DNA of 63,125 nucleotides, filler included, from Nemertoderma westbladi (Eukaryota; Animalia; Xenacoelomorpha): NCBI GenBank assembly GCA_032718475.1. It is 3 parts of 3 records of this genome, joined end to end, with 100 filler letters (N's around TTAATTAATTAA, not from the genome) between each part and the next. Parts side by side here need not be neighbours in the genome. Positions count along the whole stretch, not along the records: positions 21,140 to 50,468 come from JAUCBJ010008106.1; 2 more parts are not named here. One strand, 5' to 3'. The number at the start of each line of letters is the position of its first letter. The first letter of the stretch is position 1. The position numbers and the translations under genes are program-made. Below the pieces are notes generated by a model. It made no database searches. It was given only the letters and a program-made list of their open reading frames with translations, and was not told the DNA's origin. Shown here piece after piece: positions 28,607 through 61,869 of this stretch.

Positions 28607-29202
28607 TAAATCAATATAAGGCCTAACTAAACTGTACTGTATCGACTTCAATAATTACCATGTTATTTCGGTGTATATAATATTATTATGGTATTTAATT
28701 AAAATTAATTAATATACAGTCATTTTACCCCGACTGGGGTGTAGTTATTAAAAAAAAAAAAATTTTTTTACATACTTATATTACCTTCTCCTATTAATTT
28801 TTTCACTTGTTGTAACTAATTTTTTCACTTGTTGTAACTATTTTTAGAATGTGCACCTGATTTTGTACCTAATTAATTTACTTTAACTATTTTCACATTG
28901 GTGCATTTTTTTGTAAATTAGAACAACAAAATTACATATACTTAAATTACCTCTCACATTAATTTTTTCACTTGTAAGTATTTTTTCCAAATTTGCACCT
29001 GATTCTGTACCTAATTAATTTCCTTTAACAATTTTCACATTGGTGCATTTCTTGTAGATTAGAACAACAACAACACATACAGTACTTAAATTACCCTTCC
29101 TATGAATGATTTTTGCACTTGTAATTATTTTTCGAATTTGCAGGTACTTTAAATATTTTTACATTGGTGCATTTTTTGTAAATTTGCACACTTTTGTTCC
29201 AG

Positions 29203-32200: not shown

Positions 32201-32503
32201 TAACTTTACAAACTCTATAGTTCCACTAACTGTACAAACTCTATAGTTCCACTAACTGTACAAACTCTATAGTTCCACTAACCCTTCCAAATCTATAGTT
32301 CCACTAACTGTACAAACTCTATAGTTTCACTAACTGTACAAACTCTATAGTTCCACTAACTGTACAAACTCTATAGTTCCACTAACCCTTCCAAATCTAT
32401 AGTTCCACTAACTGTACATACTCTATAGTTCCACTAACTGTACAAACTCTATAGTTCCACTAACTGTACAAACTCTATAGTTCCACTAACTGTACAAACT
32501 CCA
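29203..32503. repeat. Satellite array of the 26-bp unit TAACTGTACAAACTCTATAGTTCCAC, about 125 copies
   Basis: Head-to-tail, highly homogeneous, with recurring variant monomers. Confidence 0.97.
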
Positions 32504-32853
32504 TGATGGGATCTGTACTGTAGTTATCTATATACTGTTACTACTGGTAATTCATCAGTGTTGTGTTATGGACTGACTCTCTTCTACCGGTGCCTGTTGT
32601 GTTGTGTTGAGGCTGGAAATATATGGCTTAGGGCTATTAAGTACTGAAGTACCTACCGTTTATTCTAGTAACGAATAGAACATGGCGCTGCGAGTAGGAA
32701 GCTCTAGGGCTAGGGCTATTAAGTACTGAAGTACCTACCGTTTATTCTAGTAATGAATAGAACATGGCGCTGCGAGTAGGGTCATTATCCTCGGAACTGT
32801 GAATCATATAACCTGTCCCAGTGACTTATTGCTATAGGCCTACCGCTCAAAAC

Positions 32854-34158
32854 ATGGCTGACATGGAGACGCGCTTAAGGAAAACTCACAGTGGTTTCAA
32901 ATCGAATTTTACACGATTGGCTAATCGGTTTGAGGTGTCGATCGCAAATATACAAAAACTCTCGGTTGACGAACGACCCCAAACAATAATCGATGAACTC
33001 CGACGCCATAAAGAGAAACTGGAATTGGCGTACGATAAAATCGGCAAATCATTAGAGACGCTGCGCGCTCACGACGTGGATTGTACAGCCGATGACGGCC
33101 ACTACGACGATGTTACTGCACATATTTCGGGACTAGACAGCATATTCACTGTTATAATTAGCGAATCCGCTAAATTTTCGGGCAGACGGCCACCAGGATC
33201 CAACCCAACAAACACACCGGTAAGTAAGAGCGACAACGCACCAAGAGCAACGGCGAATCGACCGCCGGTTCTCGATGATGAAGTCGATATAAAGAAATTT
33301 GCTTGGTGGCGAATCGCGAGGAGCAACTACGCAAGGACGATTAAACTCCAAAATCAACCGCGAGATGAACAAATCTCAGCTTTCTTCGGTTACTGTAGTC
33401 CAACATTGCTCTCTAAACTGCAATATGTTGTAGAAATTCCACAGGATACAACATTAACATTAGATCAAGTCATCGAAAAATTCGAATTGTATTTGAAAGA
33501 AAAGCACAACATTGCGTTAGATCGATGGGAGTTGACAACTTGCAAACAACAGTATTCCGAATCGTTCGACAGCTACTATACTAAATTATGTGAAGCTGCG
33601 GACACCGCCGGGTTGCGTGACATGGATGAGGATGCGTGGATGAGTACGTTGATCACCGTCGGAATATTCGACGAGGAGATCCGCCAAGATTTATTGGCTA
33701 AATCCCCCACACTCAACCATCGGGAAACTGTAAAATTTTGTCGCAGTGAGGAGGCGGCACGTGCGCATTCTAAGAGAATGAAAACGTCCAGATCGGCAGA
33801 GATGGCGACATCCGCGGGGTTAAACTCACAAAAACAACGGGGCCGTTCGTCAACACACAAGAAATCTCCCTCGAAATCACGATATCAATCCCAAAATCGC
33901 TCACCCAGTAAAGGGGCTGAGTTTGAATCAGATAAATGTCAGCGCTGTGGGTATGTGCAGCACGGACACAGGGGCAGATGTCCCGCCATGGGTAAGATAT
34001 GTAATTTCTGTAAGAAAAAGAATCATTTTTCAAACATGTGTCTGTGTCGCAATAAAAGTGCGAATGCTACATCAGCTGACATTAATATAAATAACAATAC
34101 AAGTGTGTCGTCAGCGGTGAACATTGCAACGTGTGGGCACAATAAAATCAATGATTAG
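32854..34158 (+). CDS. gag: Gag with tandem zinc knuckles
   Basis: CKQQYSESFDSYYTKL capsid motif; CQRCGYVQH...CPAMGKICNFCKKKNHFSNMC double knuckle typical of Mag elements. Confidence 0.85.
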   Translation: MADMETRLRKTHSGFKSNFTRLANRFEVSIANIQKLSVDERPQTIIDELRRHKEKLELAYDKIGKSLETLRAHDVDCTADDGHYDDVTAHISGLDSIFTVIISESAKFSGRRPPGSNPTNTPVSKSDNAPRATANRPPVLDDEVDIKKFAWWRIARSNYARTIKLQNQPRDEQISAFFGYCSPTLLSKLQYVVEIPQDTTLTLDQVIEKFELYLKEKHNIALDRWELTTCKQQYSESFDSYYTKLCEAADTAGLRDMDEDAWMSTLITVGIFDEEIRQDLLAKSPTLNHRETVKFCRSEEAARAHSKRMKTSRSAEMATSAGLNSQKQRGRSSTHKKSPSKSRYQSQNRSPSKGAEFESDKCQRCGYVQHGHRGRCPAMGKICNFCKKKNHFSNMCLCRNKSANATSADININNNTSVSSAVNIATCGHNKIND

Positions 34159-34402
34159 TGTGGGCATAGTTAATGACTGTGCTAAGAAAGAATTTATTGC
34201 TGATTATATTTCAGTACCCGATACCGGTTCCGATATAACTGTAGGTGGGAGTCAATTTTGTAGGGATATGGATATTGATTTACTAAACCTACTGGAACCA
34301 GATAATGGGCGGCGACTGCTTAATATCAATGGGAAGGAACTTAAGCAGTTGGGCCGACTCATATTATATATTACTTTAGAGGGGCAAGAAATACGAGAAG
34401 AG

Positions 34403-36354
34403 AAAATCGTTTTGAGAAAATCGCACTTAAAGAAAAATTAAATTTTCAAGTCAAAATTTTCAATTTTTTTATTTTCAATGTGATATATGCAGTTTTTAAT
34501 GAGGAATCCAAATCTGTTAACGGTATGTTAACAGCTAGCTTAGTTTTGGAGATAATCAGCTTTGATTGAGAGTAGTCAGAAGTTTTGAAATTTAAATCTC
34601 ATTCCCGATAGATATTATGTTGTTCTATGTAGATTTACTCTTATAAATTAATTTATATGCCTTATTATTCCAATCCAATAGAAAACTATCTTCCAGTTAT
34701 TTTCAGTATGTTTGCTTGTCAATCGGTCTGTCTGTTTGTCTGTTTATCTGTCAAGTGTTGTCAGTCATTTTATAAATTTTTAGATCTTGGCTCAAAAATT
34801 ATAATTTTGATGGTATATAAGGGTTTTCGAGGTCGTTAAACACGATAAAACATCTAAAAATATTTTCTGGTAATGCAACTACCATTTTTGGTGCTATTTT
34901 GGACCCACAGGACGAAAAGTACAAGTAAAAAAATGTCAAATTAAAAAATGTTGTGTTTCGATTGATAATTCTGAATGTATGCGGGTTTTTGAGGTCGGTG
35001 ATCACGATAAAAAATGTTAAAAATATTTTTGGCAATACAACCATCATTTTTGGTGCTATTTTTGCCCCAGGACGAAAAGTACAAGTAAAAAATGTCAAAT
35101 AAAAAATTGTTGTGTTTCGATTGATAATTCTGAATGTATTCGGGTTTTTGAGGTTTGTTGTTCACGTGCTGCTCGAAGTCCCAGACCAGATAACTAGCTA
35201 CCTCAGTTGTTCACGTGCTGCTCGAAGTCTCAAACAAGATAACTAGATAGCTTTGTTGTTTACCTTGCTGCTCGAAGTCCCAAACTCGATAAAAACGTAG
35301 CATATTTGTGCACATCCTGCTCGAAGTCCCAGACTAGATAGCAAGCTACCTTTGTTGTTCACGTGCTGCTTGAAGTCCCAGACTAGTCTACTATAACTAG
35401 CTACCTTTATTGTTCACGTGCTGCTCGAAGTCTCAAACTAGATAACTAGCTAGCTTTGTTGTTCACGTGCTGCTCGAAGTCCCAAACTAGATAACTAGCT
35501 ACCTTAGTTGTTTACGTGCTGCTCGAAGTCCCAAATTAGACAACCATAGTTACCTTAGTTGTTCATGTGCTGCTCGAATTCTCAAACTAGATAACTAGCT
35601 AGCTTTGTTGTTCACGTGCTGCTCGAAGTCCCAAAATAGATAGTCATAGTTAGCTTACTTGTACCAGCGCTGCTTGAAGTCCCAGACTAAGCTACCTTAG
35701 TTGTTCGCATGCTGCTCGAAGTCTCAAACTAGATAATTATCTAGCTTTGTTGTTCACGTGCTGCTCGAAGTCCCATACTAGATAACTAGCTACCTTAGTT
35801 ATTCACGTACTGCTCGAAGTCTCAAACTAGATAACTAGCTACCCTAGTTGTTCATGTGCTGCTCGGAGTCCCAGACTAGATAAAAACCCAGCATAGTTGT
35901 TCACGTGCTGCTCGAAGTCCCTGCCTTAGATAACCATCCAGCTTAGTTGATCACGTGCTGCTCGAAGTCCCAGGCTAGAAAAAAAAAGGCAGCATAGTTG
36001 TTCATTAGTTTGCTAATGTACATTCCTATTACACATTTTGCCCCTCAAGCCTCAACATCACAACACAACAACAGACCCACTCCGATTTAGCAAACTCACT
36101 TTCAAGATATTTTGTAAGTAATCCCTACTACTATTAAAATACAACAAAAATTTTAAACGCGATTTACTCATAATAGTATATTTTCCATCTGGTTGTCTTG
36201 CCAATACTTAATTTCTAATAACTCTTGATGTACTCATCCAATCAGGATGATTTATAGCTCATTAGAGAGCTGAGATGTTGGCCAATCACATGCAATATCT
36301 AACTCAAAAACTTCATTTTCACCTTAAGGTACCTTTTCGCTTTCACTGCCACAA
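34403..36354. mobile_element. Unclassified non-autonomous element inserted in the Gypsy protease
   Basis: The protease (PDTGSDITV...IREE) resumes at ~36355 as IFICDGIDNLYLSLKACKAL. The insert has ~120-bp direct repeats (34815-35155) and a 49-bp minisatellite. Confidence 0.7.
35155..36005. repeat. About 49-bp minisatellite, ~17 copies
   Basis: Unit GTTGTTCACGTGCTGCTCGAAGTCYCARACTAGATAACTAGCTACCTTA. Confidence 0.9.
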
Positions 36355-36659
36355 ATATTCATATGTGATGGTATTGATAACCTTTATTTGTCACTAAAAG
36401 CTTGTAAAGCTTTGCGTCTAATTCATGAGAACTGGCCCCGACCACTTCCAGAAATATATTTCAATACTCGTTCCTGTTCTACTGGCATGTCCTGTCCCTC
36501 CGGTACTTCTAAAACTGAAAGTATTTTCAATAAAAATAAAAGGAAAATTTTTATTGAAAGCTTACCTGTAAATCCGACCCCTGCTGAAGGTCTGTCAGTG
36601 CGTGATAAATTAATAACATTTACCCAACTGTATTTAATTGTGATGAGGCATTAAAAACA

Positions 36660-39425
36660 ATGAGGGGTGACGTCATTGGTGAACCGATGAAAATATTATT
36701 GCAAGATAATTTTGTACCGTATGCTGTCCATGCGGCCCGGAAAATTCCTTTCGCTAAAAGAGAGGAAGTTAAGGCCGAAATAGATACTTTGGTGGCAAAG
36801 GGAATAATTGAAGCTGTAGGAGATCGTCCTACAGCATGGTGCCACCCACTCGTTGTGGCTAATAAACATGATGGCAGCCTTAGAATCTGTGTCGATTTGA
36901 CTAATTTAAATCGTCAAGTAAAAAGAGTTGTTCACCCCAGTACCTCTCCCAGTGAGGTACTGGCCGAAATCCCTCCAGATTGCAATTATTTTAGCACCCT
37001 GGATGCCAAAACGGCGTATTGGCAGATCCCCTTGGCCCCAGAGGCTTGTGACCTAACGTGTTTCATAACACCATGGGGTAGATTTGTGTATAACCGTGCC
37101 CCCATGGGTTACATTAGCACGGGCGATGCGTATAATTTGCGTATTGATATGGCATTAACAGGTTTAACTGAAGAAACCTATAGACTAGTAGACGGCATGG
37201 TTCTGGCTAGTAGTAATTTTAAAACTCACATAAATTTAGTATGTGATATTCTAGAACGATGCACAAAATTTGATATTACAATAAATCCAAAGAAATTCAA
37301 GTTGGGGCATGATGAAGTGAAATTCGGTGGTTATTTAATATCGGCTAATGGTATAAAAGCCGACCCTGACAAGGTCAGTGCTATAGCAGACTTCCCATCC
37401 CCTACTAATAGGATGGAGCTCAGATCTTTCTTAGGTTTAGTTCAACAGCTATCACAATTTACTCCAAAAATTAGTGCAATGGCTAGTCCACTACGTGATA
37501 TATTGAAAGTAAAGAATGTGTTTATTTGGACCCCGGTGCACGAGATTGCTTTCAAAAACGTTAAGTTAGCTCTTGTGACACCCCCTGTGTTAGCGAATTT
37601 TGATAAAACGGCAGAGATTAAACTGGAAACGGACGCCGCAAAGAAAAATGGCGGTCTAGGTTTTTCGCTTTTGCAAAAACGTAAAACAGATGACGACTTT
37701 AGATTGGTCCAATGCGGGTCCCGATTTTTGCGAGATTGCGAGACTCGATATGCTGTTATTGAACTTGAATGTCTTGGGATACAATGGGCAATAAACAAAT
37801 GTCGGTTGTATCTACAGGGTTTACAGCATTTTACTGTGGTAGTAGACCACTGCCCTTTACTTCCTATTATGAATAAATACACCTACGACATGATCGACAA
37901 TGTTAGAATATTGAACTACAAAATGAAATTGTCTGCTTACAATTATACTCTTGAGTGGAAAAAAGGCAAAGATAATTGTATTGCAGATGCATTATCCAGG
38001 GCCCCAGTTTTCGACCCACACAGTGATGACGTCGACGATGACGAATTCCCAGTAGATGTGGCCGCAGCTGTGTTTCAAACAGCTGTTGACAACATTAATG
38101 ATGAATTTTCCAAACCAAAGAAAGAAAATAAATATTATAAAGACCCAATTCTAGAACAATTAAAGATTGTTGCTAGAGAGGATAGTGATTATCAAGTATT
38201 GATAAATGCGATTGAGAAAGATTTTCAAACACCTGAAAGTGATAATTGTTTCGTGCAGCAAGTAAAAAAAATGTGGAGTGAGTTATCAGTTGAGGACGGC
38301 CTGGTCCTTAAAGGTCAACGTATAATAATTCCAAAGGCTGCTAGGGCTGATGTTTTGAAACGCCTACATTCCTCTCATCAGGGAATAGAGCGTACGAAAC
38401 GACGGGCGCGACAATCGGTTTATTGGCCCGGAATTGATAATGAAATCAAACAAACTGTAGAATCATGTGAAAATTGTCAATATTGGTTGCCTAGCAACGT
38501 CAAAGAGCCCTTAGTATCAGAGCCTATCCCCTCCAGAATTTTTGAGTCCGTTTCAGCGGATCTATTTTACTTCGGGGGTAAAACGTATCTAGCCTATGTC
38601 GATAGGCTATCAGGCTTTCCATTTGTCACGCAATGGCGTGATGATCCTACTTCTTCGCAGGTTGTGACGAAGATTCGTGATTATTTTATATTAACGGGAG
38701 TACCTGTCCGTATACGGACAGATGGCGGGCCTCAATTTGACTCGAAAGTTTTCCGAGATTTTCTTTCACGTTGGAATGTGGAATTGGTACTATCCTCTCC
38801 CGAATATAGTCAATCAAATGGCCACGCCGAAGTAACGGTGCGGATATTAAAGCAACTTGTCGGAAAGGCCGATGCTGGAAGAATCGATACCGACAAATTC
38901 CTCCAAGCACTATTAGAACTTAGGAATACCCCACGGGAGGACGGCCGTTCTCCTAGTGAAATCGTATATGGTCATCCAATGCGATCCAGCGTGCCAATGC
39001 ACCACCGTGCCTTCGATAAAAATTGGCAGGTAAATGCTGACAAAGCAGACGAAACTGCATGGCGGGCGTCGAAGTTTGCCAAACTTCGTTATGATCGCAC
39101 GGCAAGAACTCTATCAGAACTTGAGGTTGGGACTAATGTCCTTATTCAAAACAAACGGTCAAAACGATGGTCGAGGACTGGTGTGATAGTGGAGAAGGGA
39201 CAACACCGGGACTATCAAGTCAAACTCCCATCCGGTCGCATATTACGCCGCAACCGTCGTTTCTTGCGTCGCCGAGTCGAATCAGCGATTCCTTCACATC
39301 ACGAGATACTCACACCTCCAGATCCAGTATCACCTGTAAAACGTGTTAATACTCGTTCGATTCTTAAACCTATTTTACGGCGCAGTTGCAGAGAGAGAAA
39401 ATCCGTGGTTAGATTCAAAGTTTAG
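36660..39425 (+). CDS. pol: Pol: RT, RNase H, integrase (RT catalytic DD reads DG)
   Basis: LRICVDLTNLN, STLDAKTAYWQIPL, LVDG; ETDA, ELE, DHCPL, ADALSR; HSSH...CENC; SADLF, TDGGPQF, NGHAE. Confidence 0.9.
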   Translation: MRGDVIGEPMKILLQDNFVPYAVHAARKIPFAKREEVKAEIDTLVAKGIIEAVGDRPTAWCHPLVVANKHDGSLRICVDLTNLNRQVKRVVHPSTSPSEVLAEIPPDCNYFSTLDAKTAYWQIPLAPEACDLTCFITPWGRFVYNRAPMGYISTGDAYNLRIDMALTGLTEETYRLVDGMVLASSNFKTHINLVCDILERCTKFDITINPKKFKLGHDEVKFGGYLISANGIKADPDKVSAIADFPSPTNRMELRSFLGLVQQLSQFTPKISAMASPLRDILKVKNVFIWTPVHEIAFKNVKLALVTPPVLANFDKTAEIKLETDAAKKNGGLGFSLLQKRKTDDDFRLVQCGSRFLRDCETRYAVIELECLGIQWAINKCRLYLQGLQHFTVVVDHCPLLPIMNKYTYDMIDNVRILNYKMKLSAYNYTLEWKKGKDNCIADALSRAPVFDPHSDDVDDDEFPVDVAAAVFQTAVDNINDEFSKPKKENKYYKDPILEQLKIVAREDSDYQVLINAIEKDFQTPESDNCFVQQVKKMWSELSVEDGLVLKGQRIIIPKAARADVLKRLHSSHQGIERTKRRARQSVYWPGIDNEIKQTVESCENCQYWLPSNVKEPLVSEPIPSRIFESVSADLFYFGGKTYLAYVDRLSGFPFVTQWRDDPTSSQVVTKIRDYFILTGVPVRIRTDGGPQFDSKVFRDFLSRWNVELVLSSPEYSQSNGHAEVTVRILKQLVGKADAGRIDTDKFLQALLELRNTPREDGRSPSEIVYGHPMRSSVPMHHRAFDKNWQVNADKADETAWRASKFAKLRYDRTARTLSELEVGTNVLIQNKRSKRWSRTGVIVEKGQHRDYQVKLPSGRILRRNRRFLRRRVESAIPSHHEILTPPDPVSPVKRVNTRSILKPILRRSCRERKSVVRFKV

Positions 39426-41289
39426 TTTCAGTTTCAAACTGATGTTTTAAACTCAGAAAGAAAAGAAGGTGATGGGATCTGTACTGTAGTTATCTATATA
39501 CTGTTACTACTGGTAATTCATCAGTGTTGTGTTATGGACTGACTCTCTTCTACCGGTACCTGTTGTGTTGTGTTGAGGCTGGAAATATATGGCTTAGGGC
39601 TATTAAGTACTGAAGTACCTACCGTTTATTCTAGTAACGAATAGAACATATGGCATTTCTGTTATTTGTATAATTAGTAATTAACCTTATATACGATACC
39701 ATATATGTTAAACAAACTACCCCTGCCTAACCAATCAAGACACAAAGACTGCTCTACTATTAAACAGGGGTAATCAGGAGCGTGTTATTATTAAGGTAGG
39801 GCCGCTAAATACAAAACCGCTACTCACCGTTAGATGGCGCTAACCTGCCGTCCACTAATATATTTTACTAATTTTCTACGGCATCTGCTAATTACTTGTT
39901 CCTTTCTCTACCGATTGCTCGATAGAGAGCTAACTGTTCGAATATATGAGCCACGCGGGAATAACCAAAACAATAACCCGAATCGGCTCCCTAATCTGAC
40001 TTAAAACAAGTGTGAGAGGCTTTACACTCAGAGTGTATTCTTACGGCCTAATCTTGCTGCTAGAACGCGCTAATAATTACGTCTTTTCTAATCTAATCTA
40101 ATCGCAAATACTGGGGTTCCCTAACGGAATGTGTGAATGTGAGAATATTTAAACAATCAAAAAATCGGTACAGTTTTTTTTTTATTATTAGGGCTAATAC
40201 CTACTGTGGGACCAAACTTGCCTTCGGCTGGCTTTAGGCCAGCAATTTACTAATGCGAGCTGTATACTGTATACTACGATCTGACTTATTGCCCGCTAAT
40301 TCAAATAACCGCCCAGCGTGAATAGTGTACGGTACTCTAAATTATTACCTTAACTACTCTCCGCTATGCTGCGTACAAATTCTTAATTTTACTAATTAAT
40401 TACAGTCACAAATATGCAACAGCGTACTAATTACTAAGTGTTCCAGAAAGCGCAATTCTAATTTATTACGCAACGGGTTGCACTAGTAACAGTCTAATTA
40501 CCGTATTATTTTCGACCTAATCAGTAATTATTTATAGTAAACTAAGAAATAGAAATCAATCAAAGGGAAAAGAGCACCTATCTAAGCATTCGTGATTTAT
40601 TAGGCACACTTTAGTGACACACCAATCAGCATAACAACCTATAGTTCACAACTCGCAATCTACAGTTCGCAGGTTGTTTGCGACGTAGCCTACAGTTTAG
40701 CTCGCAATGTAAAGCACGCAGGCCTCTCCCGGGTACATCTAGGCTTCCTAACTAACCCAATTCCTGCCCCCCCTAATACTACAAAATAGAGACAAAATCT
40801 GGATTATCAACCCCTAATTACTGTACCAGCGAGCGGCCCTTCGCTCTACACTGCAACTCCCCAACCGCAACAGTGACCTCCCTGCCAGCGTCGCCTGCCT
40901 TTGAATCATCCGCACTCTCTTTGTTGCTAACCCCCCAATGCGCCCGCCGCACCTACCGATAACTTAGCCCCCCATTAGAATGAATAGCTACCGCAACGGC
41001 GCATGCAAATCACAAAGTCTGACAGTCTAAGAAATCCCGTAGGATTATTGCATCGAAAAGGAATCACATAGAACCATTAACTAAAGGGTAGAAATCATAG
41101 TTCCAGTTGTAATTAACAGTAATCATTGGGATTGATTGAGAAACACAAGCAAGAATCAGCAAAGATTACAAATTAGCGAATCATTGCAAGAAATAATCGA
41201 AAGGTAGAAATTACACAGAAAATGCTAAACTACTAAACTGCACAGCAAGTACTACAGAAGCACATACTACAGAAAAGGTAAGGTAAGGA

Positions 41290-41420
41290 ATAAGGAATAT
41301 TATGGTACCGGCAAAACGCCAATTTATAGGTGATTCAAGAGGGATGATGCAATCGCTCTCTCATTGGCTCCCCAATCCGCCCTAACATTGGACCAACCTA
41401 GAGGCAGCTAGGCCAATAAG
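41290..41420 (-). promoter_or_regulatory. Pol II promoter: CCAAT boxes, TATAAAT, initiator-like TTATTC
   Basis: CCAAT/ATTGG x4 in 41363-41416; TATAAAT on the minus strand at ~41321-41327; pyrimidine initiator-like sequence about 30 nt downstream. Confidence 0.5.
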
Positions 41421-42147
41421 GAAGCCGGATTGTGAACCTATCGCTCCCAGAAATCACAAATCATCACCATATAAGGTAATTTTGCCGATGCTTAATTTAG
41501 CGGTACTAATAATATGATGCACAAACATTAATTTAGCGCAATTTATAGAGAAAATTAAAACCAGTAGCTAGCCCCATCAAGGCTAATAACAGCAAGCCCA
41601 CATCCAGGGTCCAAACAGGAAACTTGCTAACCTGGAACTATCTACTTATATCTTATTACAAATTACATAGGTAGGGCTACATACTATACAAAATGGACGA
41701 ATTCAAATATATGGGCGTTTTATTTTCCTTATCTAAATGTCATTGCGCGTTATTATGTCTTATCTAAATAATTATACTGCATAACGGCTAATATATTATA
41801 CTGTATAACGGACTAATATATGTACAGCACCATATACCGTAACACCGCTCCAAGGGAAATCAGGCAATGTTTCCCTCCACTTGTAGAAGAGTATAAGGCG
41901 ATGTATACAAAACAAAATAAATTCGCTTTCAAATAATCTAAATGACTTGATACTATAATAATTCTACTATTTACAAATATTGCTATAGATATTGCATAAT
42001 GAATTGCATACAAATTAAATTTACAAAATATTATCTCTTTCAATGTTAACGATTATTACATACAAATTAAATTTACAAAAATACTGCTTTCCCATTCGTT
42101 CTACATAATGATTACTACATACAAATTAAATTTACAAAAATATTACT

Positions 42148-42724
42148 TCCTTTATAAAACTAACGTATAGAAGGTGTTTCCTTTATAAACTAACGTATAT
42201 AAGGTGTTTCCTTTATAAACTAACGTATAAAAGGTGTTTCCTTTATAAACTAACGTATATAAGGTGTTTCCTTTATAAACTAACGTATATAAGGTGTTTC
42301 CTTTATAAACTAACGTATAAAAGGTGTTTCCTTTATAAACTAACGTATAGAAGGTGTTTCCTTTATAAACTAACGTATAGAAGGTGTTTCCTTTATAAAC
42401 AAAACGTATATAAGGTGTTTCCTTTATAAACTAACGTATATAAGGTGTTTCCTTTATAAACTAACGTATAAAAGGTGTTTCCTTTATAAACTAACGTATA
42501 GAAGGTGTTTCCTTTATAAACTAACGTATATAAGGTGTTTCCTTTATAAACTAACGTATAGAAGGTGTTTCCTTTATAAACTTACGTATAGAAGGTGTTT
42601 CCTTTATAAACTAACATATATAAGGTGTTTCCTTTATAAACTAACGTATATAAGGTGTTTCCTTTATAAACTAACGTATATAAGATGTTTCCGTTATAAA
42701 CTAACGTATAGAAAGTGTTTCCTT
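42148..42724. repeat. 30-bp tandem repeat CTTTATAAACTAACGTATA(G/T/A)AAGGTGTTTC, ~19 copies
   Basis: Direct tandem array within the putative U3. Confidence 0.95.
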
Positions 42725-43119
42725 TTGTTGCCGTTATCCCTACACCAGGGGGGAAAAACGCCGATGCTGGAGACATGACTTAACAGACCACCGAGCCCCG
42801 GCCAGTCACCGGATATTGATTGTGGGGAGGGAATATTTTCTGAGATGCAGGGTTGCGGTTGAGAAAAAGCTGCATTAGTTGGATATACTATTTAATGTAA
42901 CTGAACTCTGTTGAACCTTGTTCAACAATATTGAACCTTGATTAAGAATAATTTTGGGCTTCCCCAAATCAATATACACCAAATATTCACAATAATTATA
43001 CACGATAATATAAATCCCTACGGTATATTATTTAATAACCCACTGTTCGCTCAGAATTTTAGCCTACCTAATGTTCCCAGATTTTCCCTCAGTCCCAGTC
43101 TTAGTGCCGTAGTGTCGGT

Positions 43120-43935
43120 GTCGGTCGACCCTGTCGCGTGTCCGTTCCACCCCTCACGAACCCCGAAGGGAACGATCATCGAGAACCAGCACGGCTTGGC
43201 TAATGGTCGGTCCAGTCGGTAGACTCTGTCGCGTATCCGTACCACCCCTCTCGAACCCCGAAGGGTTCGGTCATCGAGAACCAGTACGGCTTGGCTAGGA
43301 GTCTGTCGTGTCGGTGGACCCGTTCGCGTGTCCGTTCCACCCCTCACGAACCCCGAAGGGTTCGATCATCGAGAACCAGAACGGCTTGGCTAGGGGTCCG
43401 TCGGTTCATCACAGAAACCCAACCACCTAGGCTTTCCGAGTCCGTTTCAGGCTCGTAGTCGCTTCGGCAGCCGAGAAACTGCTCCGAACAGTCGGTAGGC
43501 CAGTAGAGTCTAGTCGAGTCTAGTCCTTTGTCTTTCGACCCCGTCGCAAATCCCAGTACAAGCAGTCAGCGTTCCGAGTTCTTTTCAGTCTCGTAGTAGC
43601 TGCCGTTGACCAGAGACCGCTAAGGGCAGTTCTCGTCAAACCCGTCTTGTGGCCAGCCCTTTCGCATGTCCGTCCCACCCCTCGCGAACCCCGAAGGGAT
43701 CGGTCATCGAGAACCAGTACGGCTTAGGTCAGGGGGCAGTCGTTAGTTGGCCGCCCGTTCGCGTGTCCGCTCCACCCCTCACGAACCCCGGGGTTCGATC
43801 ATCGAGAACCAGAACGGCTTGGCTACTAAGGGGCCGTCGGTGCCCGTCGCAAATCCCTGACACAAGCAGTCAGCGGTCCGAGTTCTTTTCAGTCTCGTAA
43901 TGGCTGCTGTTGGCCAGGGACCGCTAAGGGCAGTC
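43120..43935 (-). ncRNA. Array of structured RNA hairpins: 5 type A (kink-turn, UUCG-capped), 2 type B, 1 type C
   Basis: Units of ~90 nt with compensatory base changes in their stems. G-U wobbles and the C(UUCG)G loop favour the minus (element-sense) strand. Confidence 0.65.
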
Positions 43936-44407
43936 CTTGTCCTTTAGGCCTGGCGCATTACCAAATCCACCCCTACAGGCAGCAGGAAGTTGGCCAGGGC
44001 CTAATAGTACTCAGGCTAACCTGAATACTGCTTGCATTTTCCATCCCCCCTGGCCCTTACAACTATGAAATTATTCCCGTACCCTGTAAGTTGCCCCAAA
44101 GTTCGCCCATAAATCGCCCCCAGTTTATTGAATGTGCCCAAAACCCATGGTCCCGCACCCAGTAGTAATATCGGAATAATCAATTTTAATAAAATACAAA
44201 AATATTCAACTCGCGTTATGTAAAGTTGAAATACCGCGAACAGTCCCCCCCAATGACCTTCGTGAAGTCTGTCGGTAGATTGAGTTTGCGTAGGTCATTC
44301 CCAATATAAAAAACCCAAATTTAATATTGCATAGTTTTTAATTAATTTGGCCTAGAGTTTGTATAAAAATAAATGTTCGATAAATGTTCCTGGAATATCC
44401 CAATCCA

Positions 44408-47008
44408 CTATTTCTTTTTCTGATACGCCTTTCGTCTCTTCGCCCGTCGACTCTCATCGATCGCTATGGCTGGTAGAGGAGCGTCAACATCCATCGTGAG
44501 TAACGCTTCGGCTTGTCTCCTGGCGGCTCTTCCTTTCGAAGGCATCGGGATCATGTCGGTTCGTCTTTCCAACTCGGAGTTGCGAGCCTCGAGGAACCAC
44601 TCTCCGTCACCGAACTCTTCTTTATATGAGTATAATTGTCTAATGACTTCGAATGGGCCGAATAATCCGGCGCTCAGTAGCAGATCCACGTAATGGAAAG
44701 GTAGCGTGGCCGTCGTGTGGAGGCGTTCCGGGAAGGAGAAATATCCGCGCGCCATCTCCTGCGCGATATTCCGAGCGTTTCTCCGAACCTTGGTCCTTAA
44801 GTGGCTGTTTGCGTATGTCTCAAACATGACCATATTGCCCATAGCGGTAACGTCTTTGGTTGGACATTTGATATAGCAGCGGGGGCTAGCGGAATGTCCA
44901 CGGAAACCGCACGTGGTGCAGAGGTTATAAAGGATCGGACAGACCGAAACGTCGTGGCCCGATATCGCGCAGTATGGGCAATAGAGTATCCCGAGGAGCT
45001 GGAGGCAAGAATCGGTAACCCGATTCCTTCTGCCGCGTGGGCACTGCTCCGAGCCGCAGTCGCCGCATACCTCCAACTGCATTTCTCGACCGGGGAATAT
45101 CGGAATCGGGACGCCGACGTAGTATTCGAGTCGTCGGTCGCTCTTCGGAATATTCTCGGTGGTCGGTAGCCCGCGGAATGCTAGGCTTTTGCGTAGTATG
45201 TTCTCGCTCCGATAACCCTCTTTGTGTCCCGCTGGTCTCAACTCGGATGACCGTTTCTGGCGGTGGATCCATTCAGTTTGCTCGGCGTACCAACGGGTTA
45301 GTCGCATAGGGTCCTGAGGAACGGCGGGTGTAGTAGCCACCGCTGGTCGGCGAAGAGGTGCCGGGGTTTTCGACGGAGGGATACCGAGGAGATCGTCGGG
45401 GGTCGGCGCATCGCTGGGGCCCTCCTCGACCAGTATCGCTGAGCGGGTCCGTTGTTGGCTGGTACTCGGAATCTCCGACGACCAATCTTCGCCGCCCGGG
45501 AAAGGATACGGGGATAACCGTTGGCATATGTCGCCGAAGTCGCTCAATGCAGCTGTAGTGGCTACCTCTCTCGCGGGGCTACCGGAGCCGCGTGGGGTGT
45601 AGACGCCTGCTCTCTTCATCGGTTCGGCCGAGGCAACCCGTTTGGCGGCCGGTCCGTACGCGGCCTCCGGCTCGAGTTGTCGCTTCGGGGTGGAGAGTAG
45701 AACACCCTCGTTTAGCCATATCTCTTCCCCTTCCGAAGAGATCAGAGGCTCCTCCGCACCGAGAAGCTCGGTAATCGTAGGGATATCGTAAGGTCCGCTC
45801 TCGTCCCAGGATTCGATAACGGCGGGCGTTTTCGATTCTCCCGGTGTAATGTTCTCGACCGCTTTAAACGCGTGGTTTATAACCTCATTCCAGTCGTAGT
45901 CGACGAAGGAAAGGGGAACCGCCGTGATGAGGTTATCTAGAGCCTTGCAGATAAACTTAGCGACGGTGTAGCATTCCATAACGACGTAGATATAGCTCCG
46001 TCGATCGGGATTCTCCCACCTTTGGTGTATCGTCCACTTCCGATCGACGTCCTTCCATCGACCCTCTCGCTCGCTCTTTATCTCTAATCCCGGGTATCCG
46101 CCGTATATTTTATTATAGTCCCGGAATTTCTGGGGTTTGAAGTCGATACCGCCGTTGAGCACAGCGAGGTAGCCGATCCCGGATTTCGTCGGTCTCACTT
46201 CTTGGAATCCTCGCATGAACTCGGCGAATCGTAACCAGGCTAGCAGCGTTTGAGTGTCGATGCAATGGCTAAGTGCGTTGAGGTCGTTTCGTCGGTTTCT
46301 TCCTGCGGGAGCGTTCGCGTAGTCGTTCCGGACGTCCGCCTTGATATCCGACCCGATTTTAATGACGTCGAAGTCGAAGAGGATCTTTTGGATATCCGGA
46401 GGCAGCAACCAGATCGCTCCGGCTGCCTGCACTTCCTGTCTGGGTGTCGGGAATATTCGGCACACCAGTACCAAACCGTCCAGGGTTCTGAGGACGACGA
46501 CTAAGGATCGACCGTATTCTTTCGCCCCGTACTTTTCCTGGTAGTCGTCGCGGTTTTGGATAATCGATACGCGTTCCTCTCGAAGCGTCGCCGTACACTC
46601 CGACAGGTTTCCCCAGTGGGCGAGGTACGTACTCTTGTCGTCGACGAAACTTTGACATCTCGCCAACATAATCGCTTTCGAGGTGGGCGTCGCGTTTCCC
46701 TCGTTGTCGTAGATCAAACATCGGGATCTGTAGACGCTCTGCCGGAACGTTTCCCAAAACGACGAATCGTCCCCTCCGGTTGCCTTTGCGTTCCGAGTTC
46801 TTTTCAGTCTCGTACTAGCATCGGCTAACCGGAGGGCTCGTAGATTCTTAGAATCCGGTCCCTCTCGCCCGGTGAATTTAACGTCTCGTACGTTCTCATT
46901 TAGCAGAGTGCTCCAATTTGTATCAAAGTCAGGGGATCCAGGTTGCGAATATTCCAGTAGATCTATCGTGTTACGTAATTCGCCGATAATTTGGCGATTT
47001 GGGTCCAT
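44408..47008 (-). CDS. 866-aa accessory protein: DEDDy (WRN/EXD/RNase D-like) 3'-5' exonuclease fold, disordered linker, CCHC zinc knuckles, basic tail
   Basis: Exo I-like LIYDNEG; SLVVVLRTLDGLVLVCRI; LPPDIQKILFDFDVIKIGSDIKAD (Exo II); CIDTQTL; KSGIGYLA; RWE...YIYVVME (Exo III, D to E). CPYCAISGHDVSVCP...CTTCGFRGH...C. C-terminal RRAKRRKAYQKKK. The ORF is uninterrupted. Confidence 0.7.
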   Translation of the reverse strand: MDPNRQIIGELRNTIDLLEYSQPGSPDFDTNWSTLLNENVRDVKFTGREGPDSKNLRALRLADASTRLKRTRNAKATGGDDSSFWETFRQSVYRSRCLIYDNEGNATPTSKAIMLARCQSFVDDKSTYLAHWGNLSECTATLREERVSIIQNRDDYQEKYGAKEYGRSLVVVLRTLDGLVLVCRIFPTPRQEVQAAGAIWLLPPDIQKILFDFDVIKIGSDIKADVRNDYANAPAGRNRRNDLNALSHCIDTQTLLAWLRFAEFMRGFQEVRPTKSGIGYLAVLNGGIDFKPQKFRDYNKIYGGYPGLEIKSEREGRWKDVDRKWTIHQRWENPDRRSYIYVVMECYTVAKFICKALDNLITAVPLSFVDYDWNEVINHAFKAVENITPGESKTPAVIESWDESGPYDIPTITELLGAEEPLISSEGEEIWLNEGVLLSTPKRQLEPEAAYGPAAKRVASAEPMKRAGVYTPRGSGSPAREVATTAALSDFGDICQRLSPYPFPGGEDWSSEIPSTSQQRTRSAILVEEGPSDAPTPDDLLGIPPSKTPAPLRRPAVATTPAVPQDPMRLTRWYAEQTEWIHRQKRSSELRPAGHKEGYRSENILRKSLAFRGLPTTENIPKSDRRLEYYVGVPIPIFPGREMQLEVCGDCGSEQCPRGRRNRVTDSCLQLLGILYCPYCAISGHDVSVCPILYNLCTTCGFRGHSASPRCYIKCPTKDVTAMGNMVMFETYANSHLRTKVRRNARNIAQEMARGYFSFPERLHTTATLPFHYVDLLLSAGLFGPFEVIRQLYSYKEEFGDGEWFLEARNSELERRTDMIPMPSKGRAARRQAEALLTMDVDAPLPAIAIDESRRAKRRKAYQKKK

Positions 47009-47549
47009 ATTTACGATTATATCCGTTACAAATTAGTTCAGTTAATTGTAAGTCCAGAAAGTCTGAAACTATAGCGATAGCAGAATAATTCAGTTTTTTT
47101 TTATTTAATTCAGTTTATTAATAACATTGCTATATAGGCATCTATCATCTTATTGCTAATACATTCAGCATTTACAGTTACTATAACTATACATTTATAT
47201 CCAACCAGTTTTTATGACTTTTTTGTCCTTTCTTTTTTCTGATTCTTTTCTTTGACCTTTTTTATACCTTTTTTTTGTCTTTTTTCATTTCATTATTATT
47301 TCATCTCATTTCATTTATTTCCACATATATTTCAACATTTAGTTCCACCATTTATTTCCACATTTATTTATTTCCACATCATCATTGGGTTTATAGCCCC
47401 CCGGCTATCATCATTGTTATAAGCGCAGCACCAGGGTGCGCATCATTTTATTTTCATCAGTATACGCGTCATCATTCAGGTTTATAGTAGAGTTGTCTGA
47501 TCCTTTTCATCGTTTCCAACTATATTCAATCATTTTCTTTGGTTAATCT

Positions 47550-47985
47550 TTGTCGTGGAAGGGGTGTTACGCAGCAATCTGGGATCTACAGCTGGACTCG
47601 TTACACCGCCTACGCCCCAAACTGCACACGTAACGGACAATGAAGACGCTGGGAGTGAAGTCACGTGGATGCACCAGGGACCCACCAGAATAACACTCCC
47701 AACAACATAAAGCTCAGTCGACGAAGTCATGTGGGATGGGGTTACGCAACATTCTGGGATCTACACCTGGACTCGTTACACCGCCTACGCCCCAAAATCC
47801 ACGCAACGGTCCCACCAGAATAACGCGACTGAGAAACATAAAACCCTCTATCGTCGAAGTCATGTGGATGCACCATGGACCCACCAGAATAACGGGATAG
47901 AGGGGGTGTTGCGCGGCAATCCGGGATCTACAGCTGGACTCGTTACACCGCCTACGCCCCGAACTGCGCACGCAACGGACAACAT
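47550..47985 (-). repeat. Three ~180-bp structured repeats between pol and the accessory ORF
   Basis: Shared core GGGATCTACA(G/C)CTGGACTCGTTACACCGCCTACGCCCC, enclosed by GTTRCG/CGYAAC stems. Confidence 0.75.
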
Positions 47986-48255
47986 AACATACTGCGATGA
48001 ATACAATGAATTCCACTTCAAATCTTTTCCATTTCCAATAATCCAATACCGTTGGTCCTGATGACCAAAATCAGGGTAAACAATACATAAACGACCCTGC
48101 GTCAGTCGAAACATCTGCAGGGTGATGCTGGACTCCACATAACACACGAGGAAACACAAATACCATTGCGTGGTTACAGTTGGTTTAAAGGGGGTCCATA
48201 ATTCGTTGTCGATAAATCACAGTTAAAAAGAGTTTGTCAACATGATGAGAAGGGT

Positions 48256-50468
48256 TTAAACACATTTGTCATTGTCACCGATGTCTGCAGCAGGATCCGT
48301 AGTAGGGAACTTATCACCTCTTGTAGAATCACCACTGTCATTGCCTTCAAGAAGGCACAGCTTCTGGATGGGGCGTTGGTAGTGGCCCGCTTTCGTTCGT
48401 ATCGTCACAGTCCTCGCAAGTCCGTCTTTGCTTGGGTGTATGGTCACGACCCGCGCCACAGGCCAGTGAACGCGGTCTTTGAGATCTTCTTTAACTAGTA
48501 CCATGTCGCCAACTGCGACGTTCCGGTAGGTGTTGTTCCATTTCCTCCTGGTCCGGAGGGTTATGAGGTATTCCTGGGCCCAAATTCTCCACAAATGCGC
48601 TGCCAACGCTTGGGCCTTTTTCCAGTTTGTATGTTTCGCGATCTCGTTGGGATCCGGGAACATGGTTTCCGGGAGGAGATGGGTTTTGGGTCTCCCCAGT
48701 AAGTGGTTAGGAGTGAGGGGTTCCAGGTCTGTGGGGTCGTCGCGGATAGGAACGATGGGTCGGTTGTTCAGGGTAGCCGTGATCTCGCAGAATGTTGTGC
48801 GGAGGGTGTCATGGGTTACCCGGGTATCGCCTAGAGCGACGCGCATGGATCGTTTCACTAGGTCGATCAGTTTCTCCCATACCCCGCTCGTATGGGGTGC
48901 TAAGGGGGTCTGGAAGTGCCACTGTATCTGGTGTTCCTTCCAGACTTGGCATGCGGTGTTATCGGTAAACCATCCCTCGATCGCCTCTCTAAGTTCTCTT
49001 TCTCCTCCCACAAAGTTTGTACCATTATCGGAATACATGTGGCGACATGTCCCGTTGTTCGCCACGAACCGACGCAGAGCATTGATGAATGCGTGTTGTG
49101 TCAGATTTACCCTGATATCTAGGTAAATTGCCCTAGACCTTAGGCAGGTGAAGATGGCTCCCCAGCATTTGATGTTGGATCGTCGTTCAATAACCGTGAA
49201 CGGTCCGAAACAGTCCACTCCGGTGACGTAGAATGGTGCGGAATCCGCTTGTAGACGGGTGGCTGGTAAGTCGGCCATCTTTTGGGTGATTGGTGGCGCT
49301 AGGTAACGTCTGCAGGTGAAGCAACGTTTCAACACTTTCCGGATCAGTGGCTGGATGTGGGTGATCCAATATCTTTGTCTTATATTAGCTATAATCCAAT
49401 TCTGTCCTGCGTGGTGGTTGTCCTCGTGACATTGTAGAATTAATAGCTTAGCTAGTGTCGACGTTCCGGGCAGAAGCGCCGGGTATTTAACCTCATATTC
49501 GACCGGGGCGTTTGCCATCCGGGTATTCAGTCGGATCAGTCCGTCCTCTCCCATCATTGGTCTCAGTTGGTAGACTGGGCTGTCCGGTTTCAACGTTTTG
49601 CCCGCACTAAGTTGTTCCCATTCATCGGGGAAACTTTCTTTCTGGACATATCTAACAATACACTTCTCCGCAATAATGAGTTCTTGTATATTCCGTTGAA
49701 CTATCGGTTTGTTGTTTTTCCACCGTAGGAAGTTGCGAAGGGTTATAACGTGATAGACGAGCCGTCTCATGGATGAAGTTCGCTCGATCAACCGATGTAA
49801 AGACGCCGCTAGTTGGGTGATCGTCGCGACGTTATAGTGCCTGCCCGAGTCCTTTGCAGGCTCAGTCAGACAACTATAAATTTCCACCGCGTTGCTTCGA
49901 TGGATTTTACGGATCTCTTTATCGTCCTCGGAGTATTTTCCGCTATCGAGCTCGGGGTCGAATCGGGTACTCCATGTTAATTGTGGCTGCCGTAGGAATT
50001 CCGGGCCTGTAAGCCAGAGTTTACTTTTACCGAGTTGTTTTGGGGTGGCGCCTCGGCTTGATAAGTCCGCTGGGTTTTCCTTCCCGTTCACGTGATGCCA
50101 CTGTTCTCGGCCGGTACACTGTTTAATCTCTGTGGCTCGGTTTGCAACAAACGTGGTGTGACGCCGTGATGGAGAGTGGAGATAATAGAGAACTATACTC
50201 GAATCTACCCAGAAGTGTTGAGATTCTATGGGGATCCGTAGGTTCCGCATGGCCATGCGATTCTGTCTTACTGCCCAAACTGCAGCTTGTAGCTCGAGCC
50301 TCGGAATCGTTGCTACGAATTCCCCGGATACTGTCTTTGCTTTGGAGAATAAGAAGCTTGTATCGCCGTTTCCATCGTTACTTAGTCTCCGCAAGAAGGT
50401 TACTACGCCGATTCCGGTATTCGAAGCATCCGAAAAGGTATGGAGCTGGAAGATATCGGTGGGCAGTT
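48256..50468 (-). CDS. pol: BEL/Pao pol, C-terminal part: RNase H and integrase
   Basis: FSDAS, TIPRLELQAA, FWVDS, FVANR, WHHVNGKENPADLSSRG; H...HHAG...CFTC; GVDCFGP, YSDNGTNFVG, GVWE; VAVGDMVLV...WPVARV...DGLARTV...RPIQKL. Confidence 0.93.
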
Positions 50469-50568
50469 NNNNNNNNNNNNNNNNNNNNNNNNNNNNNNNN
50501 NNNNNNNNNNNNTTAATTAATTAANNNNNNNNNNNNNNNNNNNNNNNNNNNNNNNNNNNNNNNNNNNN
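50469..50568. other. Assembly gap with TTAATTAATTAA linker
   Basis: Same format as 21040-21139. Confidence 0.95.
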
Positions 50569-60432: not shown

Positions 60433-60738
60433 ACTTGTTCAGGGAAGTTTGAATATGCAAAATTACAAATAATAGACAACAAAAATATAAAATTGGATGT
60501 GCAGTTATTCATAATTAGCACTGTTAAAGTACTGGTGTTGTTATATTTATATTTAATAAATTGTATGATTTATTATTATTCCCCCCAAAAAAAATATGTA
60601 ATAAAAAATTATACTCAGAATAAGGTGTAACAGAACAATATTAAAGTACAGTTGAATACGAAAATACGGTACCTAAATAAAGTAACCTAGTAACTTCATT
60701 ATCTAACTAACTAAAGCATTGGTTAAGTTTTGCTAACA

Positions 60739-61869
60739 ATGGATTGTTTTACTTTATCTACCAACAGCTTTGCTGTAGATGTTTACAAGGAGATTGTAAA
60801 TACCCGATCTGATTCCAACATTCTGATCAGTCCAATTAGTATAATTACAGTGCTATCAATGACATATGGGGGTGCTGCAGGGGAAACTAAAGAACAGATG
60901 AGAAGTGTTCTACATTACACGGGCCAAAATGATGATGACATACATAAAGCCATTCATTCATTACAAACTTATCTTTATAGAGATGATAAGCCATACACTC
61001 TCGATGGGGCTAATAAGTTGTTTGCGCAAGAAGATTTCCGATTTAAAGATGAATTTTTAGCGCTGACCAAAGAACAATACGGGTCAGAGTTAGAGAAAGT
61101 CAACTTTAAGACATCTTTCAATGAAGTTCGAATACAGATCAATAACTGGGTGGAATCCATGACGAAAGATCGAATAAAGGATCTCATTGGTGAGGATGTT
61201 CTCAATTCTCTGACCAGATTGGTTCTGGTAAATGCTTTGTATTTCAAAGGAGAATGGGTAACACAGTTTGATCCCAAGAAAACCTCCCAAGGAAAATTCA
61301 TTACCGAATCCAAAGGAGAGGTCGATGCGATGTTTATGTATATGACGGAAAAGTTTAATGTATTTCGTAGCAAAGAAGTCTATGCGTTGGAAATGCCATA
61401 CAAAGGAGAGGATCTGTCTATGGTATTTATATTGCTACATCGCGGAATTTCAGACATCGAAGCCAAACTGAGCAGCGAATGGTTAGCCGAGGTGTTCAAA
61501 GGGTTTAGGAAGATCGAATTAGATGTTCGTATCCCTAAGTTTAAACTGGAAGATTCTTTCAGTTTGAAGGATACGCTTTCAGCTATGGGGATGTCGAATC
61601 TGTTTTCGGAAGAGCTTTGCGATCTATCTGGAGTGACTGGCGCTAGAGATCTGTTTGTTAGTGCCGTTCTACATAAGACCTTTGTGGAGATTAACGAAGA
61701 GGGTTCTGAAGCTGCTGCTGCTACGGCTGCTGTTGCGACGATGCGCAGCGGAATGGTGACACCTCCTTTCGAACTCAATCGGCCTTTTCTTTTCGCTATT
61801 AGAGAAAAAACAGATGGCAATCTACTCTTCTTGGGTAAAGTTACCAACCCTGGTCCACTACAAACGTAA
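60739..61869 (+). CDS. Intracellular inhibitory serpin (clade B-like), 376 aa, P1-P1' Arg-Ser
   Basis: NILISPISI, GAAGET, INNWVESMT, LVLVNALYFKGEW, IPKFKLE; hinge EEGSEAAAAT, RCL AAVATMR-SG, FELNRPFLF. No signal peptide; single coding exon. Confidence 0.95.
   Translation: MDCFTLSTNSFAVDVYKEIVNTRSDSNILISPISIITVLSMTYGGAAGETKEQMRSVLHYTGQNDDDIHKAIHSLQTYLYRDDKPYTLDGANKLFAQEDFRFKDEFLALTKEQYGSELEKVNFKTSFNEVRIQINNWVESMTKDRIKDLIGEDVLNSLTRLVLVNALYFKGEWVTQFDPKKTSQGKFITESKGEVDAMFMYMTEKFNVFRSKEVYALEMPYKGEDLSMVFILLHRGISDIEAKLSSEWLAEVFKGFRKIELDVRIPKFKLEDSFSLKDTLSAMGMSNLFSEELCDLSGVTGARDLFVSAVLHKTFVEINEEGSEAAAATAAVATMRSGMVTPPFELNRPFLFAIREKTDGNLLFLGKVTNPGPLQT

Follow-up and report, generated by a model that had tools for sequence, protein, structure and literature searches.

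Both the Juno and the Vesta retrotransposons with long terminal repeats (LTRs), known from bdelloid rotifers, carry a third open reading frame (ORF3) past pol, which replaces env and encodes an RNase D-like DEDDy fold of unknown function (Rodriguez et al., 2017; PMC5408684, excerpts). The acid of the ExoIII motif may be Glu in these proteins, and some of them have a Cys-His-Cys motif (PMC5408684, excerpts). DEDDy ORF3s have also been described in Terminons (PMC5718144, PMC6338049 and PMC6431247, excerpts). Elements of the family Belpaoviridae (BEL/Pao) have gag, pol and sometimes env, LTRs of 0.2-1.2 kb and an overall length of 4.2-10 kb (PMC8742986). An exonuclease ORF goes unmentioned in this ICTV profile, where env is the only extra gene listed, and the word “exonuclease” is absent from the excerpts available of the BEL/Pao survey by de la Chaux and Wagner, in which env is again the only extra gene (PMC3118150). 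The stretch of DNA analysed here, referred to as the window, comprises 63,125 nucleotides of the xenacoelomorph Nemertoderma westbladi (GCA_032718475.1) and contains a BEL/Pao LTR retrotransposon of high copy, of which the 3’ half is seen. Its ORF3 encodes a protein with a DEDDy-like domain and zinc knuckles, and short hairpins of four kinds lie on both sides of the gene and within it. The feature is real: a group of BEL/Pao elements has an accessory gene that combines DEDDy and zinc-knuckle domains, to which this family adds unusual repeated structured RNAs.

The window element shares with Juno and Vesta the place and the fold of ORF3 and the possible Glu in ExoIII, and with Belpaoviridae the Pao-type RNase H and integrase domains, a candidate polypurine tract (PPT) before the putative LTR and an animal host. 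The rotifer elements differ in being rotifer-specific, Ty3/gypsy-like and intact in their catalytic residues (PMC5408684, excerpts), whereas the window element belongs to BEL/Pao, has three added zinc knuckles and lacks ExoI; the two were compared by description. From described Belpaoviridae it differs by its non-env ORF3 and its candidate 4.5-kb LTR. The first-pass annotation of the window knew of no such combination in BEL/Pao. This claim has been narrowed, as exonuclease ORF3s in LTR elements were already described (PMC5408684, excerpts), whereas the openly searchable literature, as distinct from Repbase, GyDB, Dfam and supplements, yielded nothing on an ORF3 of exonuclease-knuckle type in BEL/Pao, nor on hairpin arrays of several classes in LTR elements. 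The supplements of PMC5408684 and PMC3118150 could hold related sequences. The terms “hairpin” and “ribozyme” do not occur in PMC5408684. Stem-loop repeats in the hookworm Atlas element were looked for, with no mention found, and an exonuclease ORF in the Cer elements of C. elegans found no confirmation.

On the minus strand the element reads pol, a 1247-nt spacer, ORF3, a G-run with TGTT, a GC-rich array, a 30-bp satellite, promoter words and AACA (Table 1). The pol frame is uninterrupted for 737 codons from the linker at 50469 and matches Peptidase_A17 (5e-17), Integrase_H2C2 (1e-8) and DUF5641 (6e-30) in Pfam; this Pao-type RNase H and integrase domain set with the integrase last is that of BEL/Pao. 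The window is made of three contigs concatenated with N-padded linkers (N44-TTAATTAATTAA-N44 at 21040-21139 and 50469-50568), and the element is seen from its 3’ side only, the second linker removing gag, protease, reverse transcriptase (RT), the 5’ LTR and the target-site duplication. Pol had been called intact in the first-pass annotation, which does not hold, as the linker cuts it and only the RNase H tail and the integrase are visible.

ORF3 (protein P0003) is uninterrupted over its 866 codons, at 47008-44408, and, as had been claimed, is no env. An env-like Pfam match is absent from it, and no convincing transmembrane segment was found in it (maximum KD19 1.86, over a predicted strand pair). 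The membrane fusion glycoprotein of env-bearing BEL elements of the Tas, Cer and Atlas type is therefore not what it encodes; nuclease and zinc-knuckle homology is found instead. That ORF3 is a real accessory gene of the BEL/Pao element is supported because its read depth equals that of pol, its variants are mostly synonymous and three of five related loci have ORF3 behind a BEL/Pao pol. Four read runs from four studies were compared with 42750-50460, the summed contig depth not being a copy number. ORF3 and pol have similar depth in run X1 (16-34k and 15-27k) and in run X3 (18-27k and 12-27k), and the BEL element lies about 100-fold above the neighbouring Gypsy element (80-230). Contigs of run X4 span the passage from spacer to ORF3 (46308-47412) and from ORF3 to PPT (44215-44500), and none of the 15 joints listed (of 30) connects the pol side to the LTR side by skipping the whole of ORF3. 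Counts of variants refer to the 40 of 442 variants and the 12 of 49 indels that are listed. ORF3 holds 13 of the 40, and 10 of these segregate among copies, with seven synonymous against 33% expected for transitions (P 0.02) and nine at third positions; the three apparently private to this copy are all non-synonymous. In pol, 15 of 18 variants are synonymous, and no indel falls in ORF3 or pol. A nested DNA transposon or a host gene was considered for the ORF3 block and rejected, as no pair of terminal inverted repeats (TIRs) encloses it among the 25 longest inverted repeats and its depth matches that of pol and not of a single-copy locus. With these results, and with relatives in which ORF3 follows pol, the refuting outcomes named in the first-pass annotation did not arise.

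Several side observations come from the same reads. A low-depth joint at 43601-46783 (12.6 and 28) connects the B hairpin motif of the downstream array with that of ORF3 and omits most of the gene; either B copies have recombined, or the shared 32-mer has misled the mapping. A 787-bp deletion inside pol (48719-49507) recurs in two studies at a depth of 700-1300, and in run X4 the region of the X and Y hairpins (47394-48425) is about 10 times deeper than ORF3. Both are hints of non-autonomous derivatives that retain X/Y.

When metagenomes were scanned with the knuckle pattern, 46 stretches matched and five loci were confirmed (L001-L005). Three of these (L003, L004 and L005) have a gag-pol of BEL/Pao type, including gag, protease and RT, directly upstream of ORF3 on the same strand, and the pol of L004 matches Peptidase_A17 at 1.5e-45. 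L003 and L005 are counted as one lineage because they are 77% identical, and pol identity among the three lineages (window, L004, L003/L005) is mostly 24-38% (about 30%). ORF3 thus sits in the env position in three distant BEL lineages. L004 has an open gag, an open pol and an ORF3 of 955 codons, and L005 is a complete though decayed element with two LTRs (about 720 bp), a primer-binding site (PBS) and a PPT; ORF3 is broken in L003 and L005. In all three loci the PPT and LTR start within roughly 200 nt of the ORF3 stop. The upstream sequence of L002 is too short to show context, and in its ORF3 homologue (79-2022, P0005) the zinc-knuckle domain is tandemly duplicated. L001 has an intact ORF3 homologue (8070-11133; 642 codons, 66% DNA identity to L003/L005) between diverged direct repeats and no gag or pol match anywhere in its 16.6 kb; it could be a non-autonomous element of the form LTR-ORF3-LTR, or else a copy that has been domesticated.

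A full HMMER scan with P0003 returned seven unnamed proteins among 1.84 billion representatives. The family shares an N-terminal domain and a Cys/His domain, the latter with 19 invariant columns in 11 sequences. The N-terminal family profile matches EXD2 (2.2e-5) and Egalitarian (9.2e-5), the closest solved relatives, which places it by homology in the DnaQ-like fold of DEDDy 3’-5’ exonucleases; both are host proteins that differ in having no zinc knuckles. A profile from the homologues only matches P0003 at 2.7e-15 (a single comparison). The C-terminal profile matches the zinc-finger domain of trypanosome RNase D (PDB 7C42/7C45, 3.5e-4), the best solved match, and then the knuckles of Lin28 and nucleocapsid. 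Trypanosoma brucei RNase D likewise has a DEDDy exonuclease followed by a CCHC zinc-finger domain but is cellular, catalytically active and directed at guide RNA (PMC7797062, excerpts); the match is confined to the knuckles and does not imply common ancestry of the whole proteins. Pfam has no match for P0003 or for the ORF3s of L001, L003 and L004. A word-based protein search gave nothing for P0003 and nothing among proteins over 1795 aa, and with the zinc-domain profile it returned P0008 and P0014 only; viral contigs contained no relative of ORF3 or of the integrase. In a feature-based search with the exonuclease part, a cluster in which 42% of the members have PF01612 scored 0.92 (157 shared features), which is a lead only.

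The ExoI column holds Asp in all eight aligned homologues; P0003 lacks about 20 residues there, and with them the helix and strand that carry the motif, and the homologue-only profile aligns P0003 only from just past this point. P0003 retains the ExoII Asp and an ExoIII Y-x3-E and so lacks the complete catalytic set (ExoI D-x-E, ExoII D, ExoIII Y-x3-D). An upstream LIYDNE word was weighed as a substitute for ExoI; the profile leaves it unaligned, and the structure model is too poor to place it. Two AlphaFold models have low confidence (predicted local distance difference test 38 and 45), and the best Foldseek match of such a poor model, EXD2 at E 0.11, is weak. The gap is probably shared by the copies of the element family, since a contig of run X4 across the ExoI site has no insertion of that size. 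The protein of the window is thus likely a pseudo-nuclease, judging from the aligned motifs, and the earlier nuclease and zinc-knuckle label stands for the fold and the knuckles and fails for the catalytic ExoI segment. Two of the eight homologues (P0004 and P0007) have the full catalytic set in aligned columns, and the ORF3 of L004 probably keeps it with a shift of one column; the remaining homologues have lost ExoII or ExoIII.

The candidate LTR starts with TGTT at 44242, a putative boundary past which depth is 2-4-fold higher in runs X1 and X3. Reads put its end between 39706 and about 39770, high depth beginning nearer 39770. Weaker PPT-TG sites, possible alternative starts, occur at 41866 and 44043/44036, and a start of the LTR below the 30-bp satellite was considered. 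Because the candidate start is upstream of the eight-hairpin array, U3 would include this array, which probably lies inside the LTR of about 4.5 kb; the long LTR first proposed is kept in this sense, at 4537 bp with putative ends, and corrected to include, in all probability, the array. The LTR of Bombyx Pao contains tandem repeats. The length of 4.5 kb exceeds the 0.2-1.2 kb described for the family, and very long LTRs have been reported, in sources available as excerpts, for plant Ogre elements.

Fifteen hairpins of four kinds can be distinguished. Six lie between pol and ORF3 (three X and three Y), where the first-pass annotation had seen three structured repeats; repeats are indeed there, and their count had to be revised. 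One B hairpin lies within ORF3, and eight more units (three B and five A) form the downstream array at 43122-43935, as had been stated. The sharing of one motif between gene and array was also borne out, with 31 of 32 nt identical between ORF3 (46788-46819) and the array and a longest exact common word of 27 nt, where 200 shuffles gave no more than 13. The B core consists of a GAAA tetraloop and an ANUA/GAA internal loop, on a lower stem of one type in B1 and B2 and of another in B3 and the ORF3 copy. The stems that close the Y core are of three kinds with no relation to one another, all paired, and one Y holds an entire X in its loop. The A units have a UUCG loop and a GAU-GA/GA internal loop. 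By comparison with consensus motifs, the internal loop of A is kink-turn-like and that of B loop-E-like. A strict kink-turn descriptor matches three of the five A units, a density of 5.3 per kb, where other parts of this strand have 0-0.6. In A, four of 25 pairs are changed on both sides and 93% of cells pair, the structure being derived from the same five sequences.

With cores held fixed and flanks shuffled, six of the 15 units were reached by none of 500 shuffles (z -4.1 to -6.2) and four more by 7-20 of 500, unit boundaries having been picked after inspection of the folds. The ORF3 B hairpin has z -6.1 (0/200 shuffles; 0/500 flank shuffles), and the minimum z of 48 control windows in pol and ORF3 is -2.8. 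The sense strand folds more stably in 14 of 14 units tested, which is given little weight because this strand is G-rich. Conserved cores on different, still-paired stems, together with the six units that no flank shuffle reached, support the reading of the repeats as selected RNA structures. The arrays are lineage-specific, since A and B hairpin models match none of the five related loci, where comparable repeats are absent and diverged single-copy signals would escape, and since L003-L005 have no arrays behind pol. A self-cleaving ribozyme or another known structured RNA family was set aside, as no Rfam model matched the arrays credibly with the E limit set at 10; a group-II-D1D4-1 match at 39847-39929 (35.3 bits, cut-off 35) was treated as chance. 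Exact B or X cores were not found in viral contigs, nor was the A core in prokaryote genomes.

The best explanation, held tentatively and at rather less than even confidence, is that ORF3 is a likely non-catalytic RNA-binding factor acting on the hairpin-bearing RNA of its own element. The ORF3 message would be a subgenomic RNA that either begins within the AT-rich spacer or is joined to it by splicing. The exonuclease fold and knuckles of the protein would hold stem-loops, much as Egalitarian uses this fold, and would route or protect element RNA by export, by transport towards germ-line cells or by keeping it from decay. Feedback control could come from the B hairpin close to the beginning of the coding sequence, the three B copies in U3 could be further ORF3 sites on every transcript, X/Y upstream of ORF3 could mark full-length RNA only, and the A hairpins may serve to bring in a host protein that binds kink-turns. 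This explanation is favoured by the profile matches of ORF3, its place behind pol, its depth and its synonymous bias, by the repeated erosion of catalytic residues in the family while 19 zinc-domain columns are invariant, and by the recurrence of the B core in ORF3 and array on unrelated paired stems. Egalitarian binds stem-loop signals of 40-65 nt without catalysis, including that of the I factor retrotransposon, its DEDDy residues being dispensable for this; it differs from ORF3 in keeping these residues and in its link to BicD/dynein (10.1101/2025.08.03.668247, excerpts), no such link being evident in ORF3.

HIV Rev with the Rev response element (RRE), like retroviral constitutive transport elements, combines an accessory RNA-binding protein with structured cis RNA in the 3’ half of the element. 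The window element has no sequence or fold relation to Rev/RRE and no Rfam match, it has four repeated motif classes and not one, and its A/B array would be on all transcripts if in U3. An ORF3-hairpin cognate circuit is plausible, with the X/Y cluster a better candidate than the A/B array for marking unspliced RNA. The fuller version, in which a widespread, undescribed BEL/Pao group has a DEDDy plus zinc-knuckle protein that is here purely RNA-binding and has evolved jointly with its cognate hairpins as a modular code, with one hairpin in its own gene for feedback, so that a circuit like that of complex retroviruses was built independently from an Egalitarian-like fold, is possible but on balance unlikely.

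Several points weigh against an RNA-binding factor with cognate hairpins. ORF3 and arrays do not always occur together: L003, L004 and L005 have ORF3 behind pol and no arrays, their repeats of at least 14 nt being limited to one pair, and protein and cis element are found together in none of the five related loci, so that an obligate protein-RNA pair of the Rev/RRE type is unsupported and the cognate system proposed in the first-pass annotation is partly weakened. A U3 array on every transcript could not mark unspliced RNA as the RRE does. Five of the 15 hairpins are no better than their shuffled flanks (28-374 of 500), fixed-grid sliding windows show no general folding-energy excess of the arrays over pol, and the ORF3 B copy could be a duplication relic. 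The loss of ExoI is read from an alignment, since the structure models are poor, and the homologues P0004, P0007 and probably L004 retain all catalytic residues, so that the family may have nuclease activity towards some other target. As to the LTR, run X4 has no clear doubling of depth at its start, and the candidate PPT is only joint fourth by purine score.

Among the other explanations, the one that survives best, though it is doubtful, is that ORF3 counters small-RNA silencing, by binding or trimming piRNAs or siRNAs or as a decoy for factors of the EXD1, Mut-7 or Maelstrom type, while the hairpins are separately host-read signals for constitutive export, localisation or stability. The retention of ORF3 in two other lineages that have no arrays is in line with it, as are the two-domain plan shared with the guide-RNA trimmer RNase D of trypanosomes (PMC7797062, excerpts) and the work of DEDD derivatives in piRNA pathways (PMC5408684, excerpts). 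The A motif, compared with the consensus, resembles a ready-made binding site of a host kink-turn protein. Trimming is unlikely here because this copy has no ExoI, and the B core found in both ORF3 and array on independent stems would be left unexplained. It is improbable that the hairpins are packaging, dimerisation or translation signals for Gag or the ribosome (e.g. an internal entry site for ORF3), with ORF3 an auxiliary nucleocapsid-like chaperone or a particle processing enzyme. The ORF3 knuckles do resemble those of nucleocapsid and Lin28 and, weakly, the L004 gag (E 0.012, versus L002), and X/Y lie just upstream of ORF3, with 42 upstream ATGs in the spacer; X/Y nevertheless end about 550 nt before the ORF3 ATG, the A/B array is probably in U3, distant from the usual 5’ packaging sites, and gag is outside the window. 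Slightly less probable still is a decaying captured passenger with repeats that are template-switching by-products or DNA-level enhancers and have no RNA function. In its favour are the lost ExoI, the broken ORF3s of L003 and L005, the varying number of array units among copies (read joints) and the lack of regional folding excess; against it are the synonymous bias of ORF3 with no indel in it among those listed, its place behind pols only about 30% identical, the three closing stems of the Y core and two of the B core, all paired, and the double-sided changes in four of 25 A pairs.

Table 1. Features of the BEL/Pao element in window coordinates.
Feature	Position	Strand	Remarks
BEL/Pao pol, 3’ part	48256..50468	-	RNase H tail, integrase, DUF5641; from Pfam and translation; ends at linker
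X/Y cluster	47560..47982	-	near-invariant cores on variable paired stems; region z -4.0, 0/100 shuffles
X hairpins	X1 47903-47982; X2 47736-47812; X3 47560-47640	-	X2 nested in Y2 loop
Y hairpins	Y1 47840-47910; Y2 ~47712-47833; Y3 47648-47704	-	
AT-rich spacer	47009..47550	-	TATAAA/TATATA words (five); ORF3 may have an internal promoter or splice acceptor here
ORF3 (P0003), 866 aa	44408..47008	-	N-terminal extension, DEDDy-like domain, low-complexity linker, three zinc knuckles with conserved helical extension, basic C-terminal tail
B hairpin in ORF3	46770..46840	-	codons ~56-80; apical core as in B1-B3, own lower stem
EXD2/Egalitarian-like DEDDy exonuclease fold	45959..46573	-	residues ~146-350; ExoI helix-strand segment absent; ExoII Asp and ExoIII Tyr/Glu present
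Zinc-knuckle domain	44678..45067	-	residues 648-777; CX2CX4HX4C at 677, CX2CX4HX5C at 697, degenerate first knuckle
Candidate PPT GGGGGGGAC	44243..44251	-	165 nt past ORF3 stop; same position and GGAC/TGTT junction in L004
Candidate 3’ LTR	39706..44242	-	4537 bp, TGTT...AACA; both ends putative
A/B array	43122..43935	-	order B A A B B A A A
B hairpins of array	B1 43843-43935; B2 43540-43631; B3 43405-43490	-	
A hairpins of array	A1 43747-43836; A2 43650-43742; A3 43312-43403; A4 43217-43308; A5 43122-43213	-	
30-bp tandem repeat	42147..42725		19 copies, 95% matches; inside candidate LTR
Candidate LTR promoter	41320..41420	-	CCAAT/ATTGG boxes 41417, 41391, 41376, 41367; TATAAA 41328 (consensus words only)
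AATAAA polyadenylation words	40601, 40467, 40186	-	downstream of promoter candidate

The end of the BEL element (AACA, 39706) lies about 57 bp from the 3’ LTR of a separate Ty3/gypsy element (32504-39648, plus strand), which has 179-bp LTRs that are 99% identical and a tRNA primer site and is of low copy by depth. This neighbour also has a duplicated unit of LTR end and PBS (32629-32780) and, between gag and pol, tandem repeats of 49 bp and 159 bp. It is preceded by a strongly C-skewed 26-bp satellite (29196-32501; 127 copies, 92% matches) and by a long interspersed nuclear element (endonuclease-RT, 24959-28606) between imperfect inverted repeats (24464-24863 and 28817-29124). Further away, 856-bp inverted repeats of 100% identity (3981-11969) flank an ORF of 692 codons (6422-8500) that has no Pfam match and presumably resembles a cysteine-rich DDE-type transposase; this is probably a young DNA transposon with long TIRs. 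An intronless serpin ORF of 380 codons (60727-61869), whose best solved match is leukocyte elastase inhibitor, lies beyond the linker and may not adjoin the element in the genome.

The ORF3 described here represents a second, old type of accessory gene besides env in BEL/Pao, common to distant lineages. It extends the finding of exonuclease ORF3s in rotifers to another LTR family and suggests a recurrent need for such a protein. The function of DEDDy ORF3s has been a question since 2017, and in this element candidate RNA targets, four short hairpin kinds with one within the gene itself, adjoin the gene and are open to binding assays.

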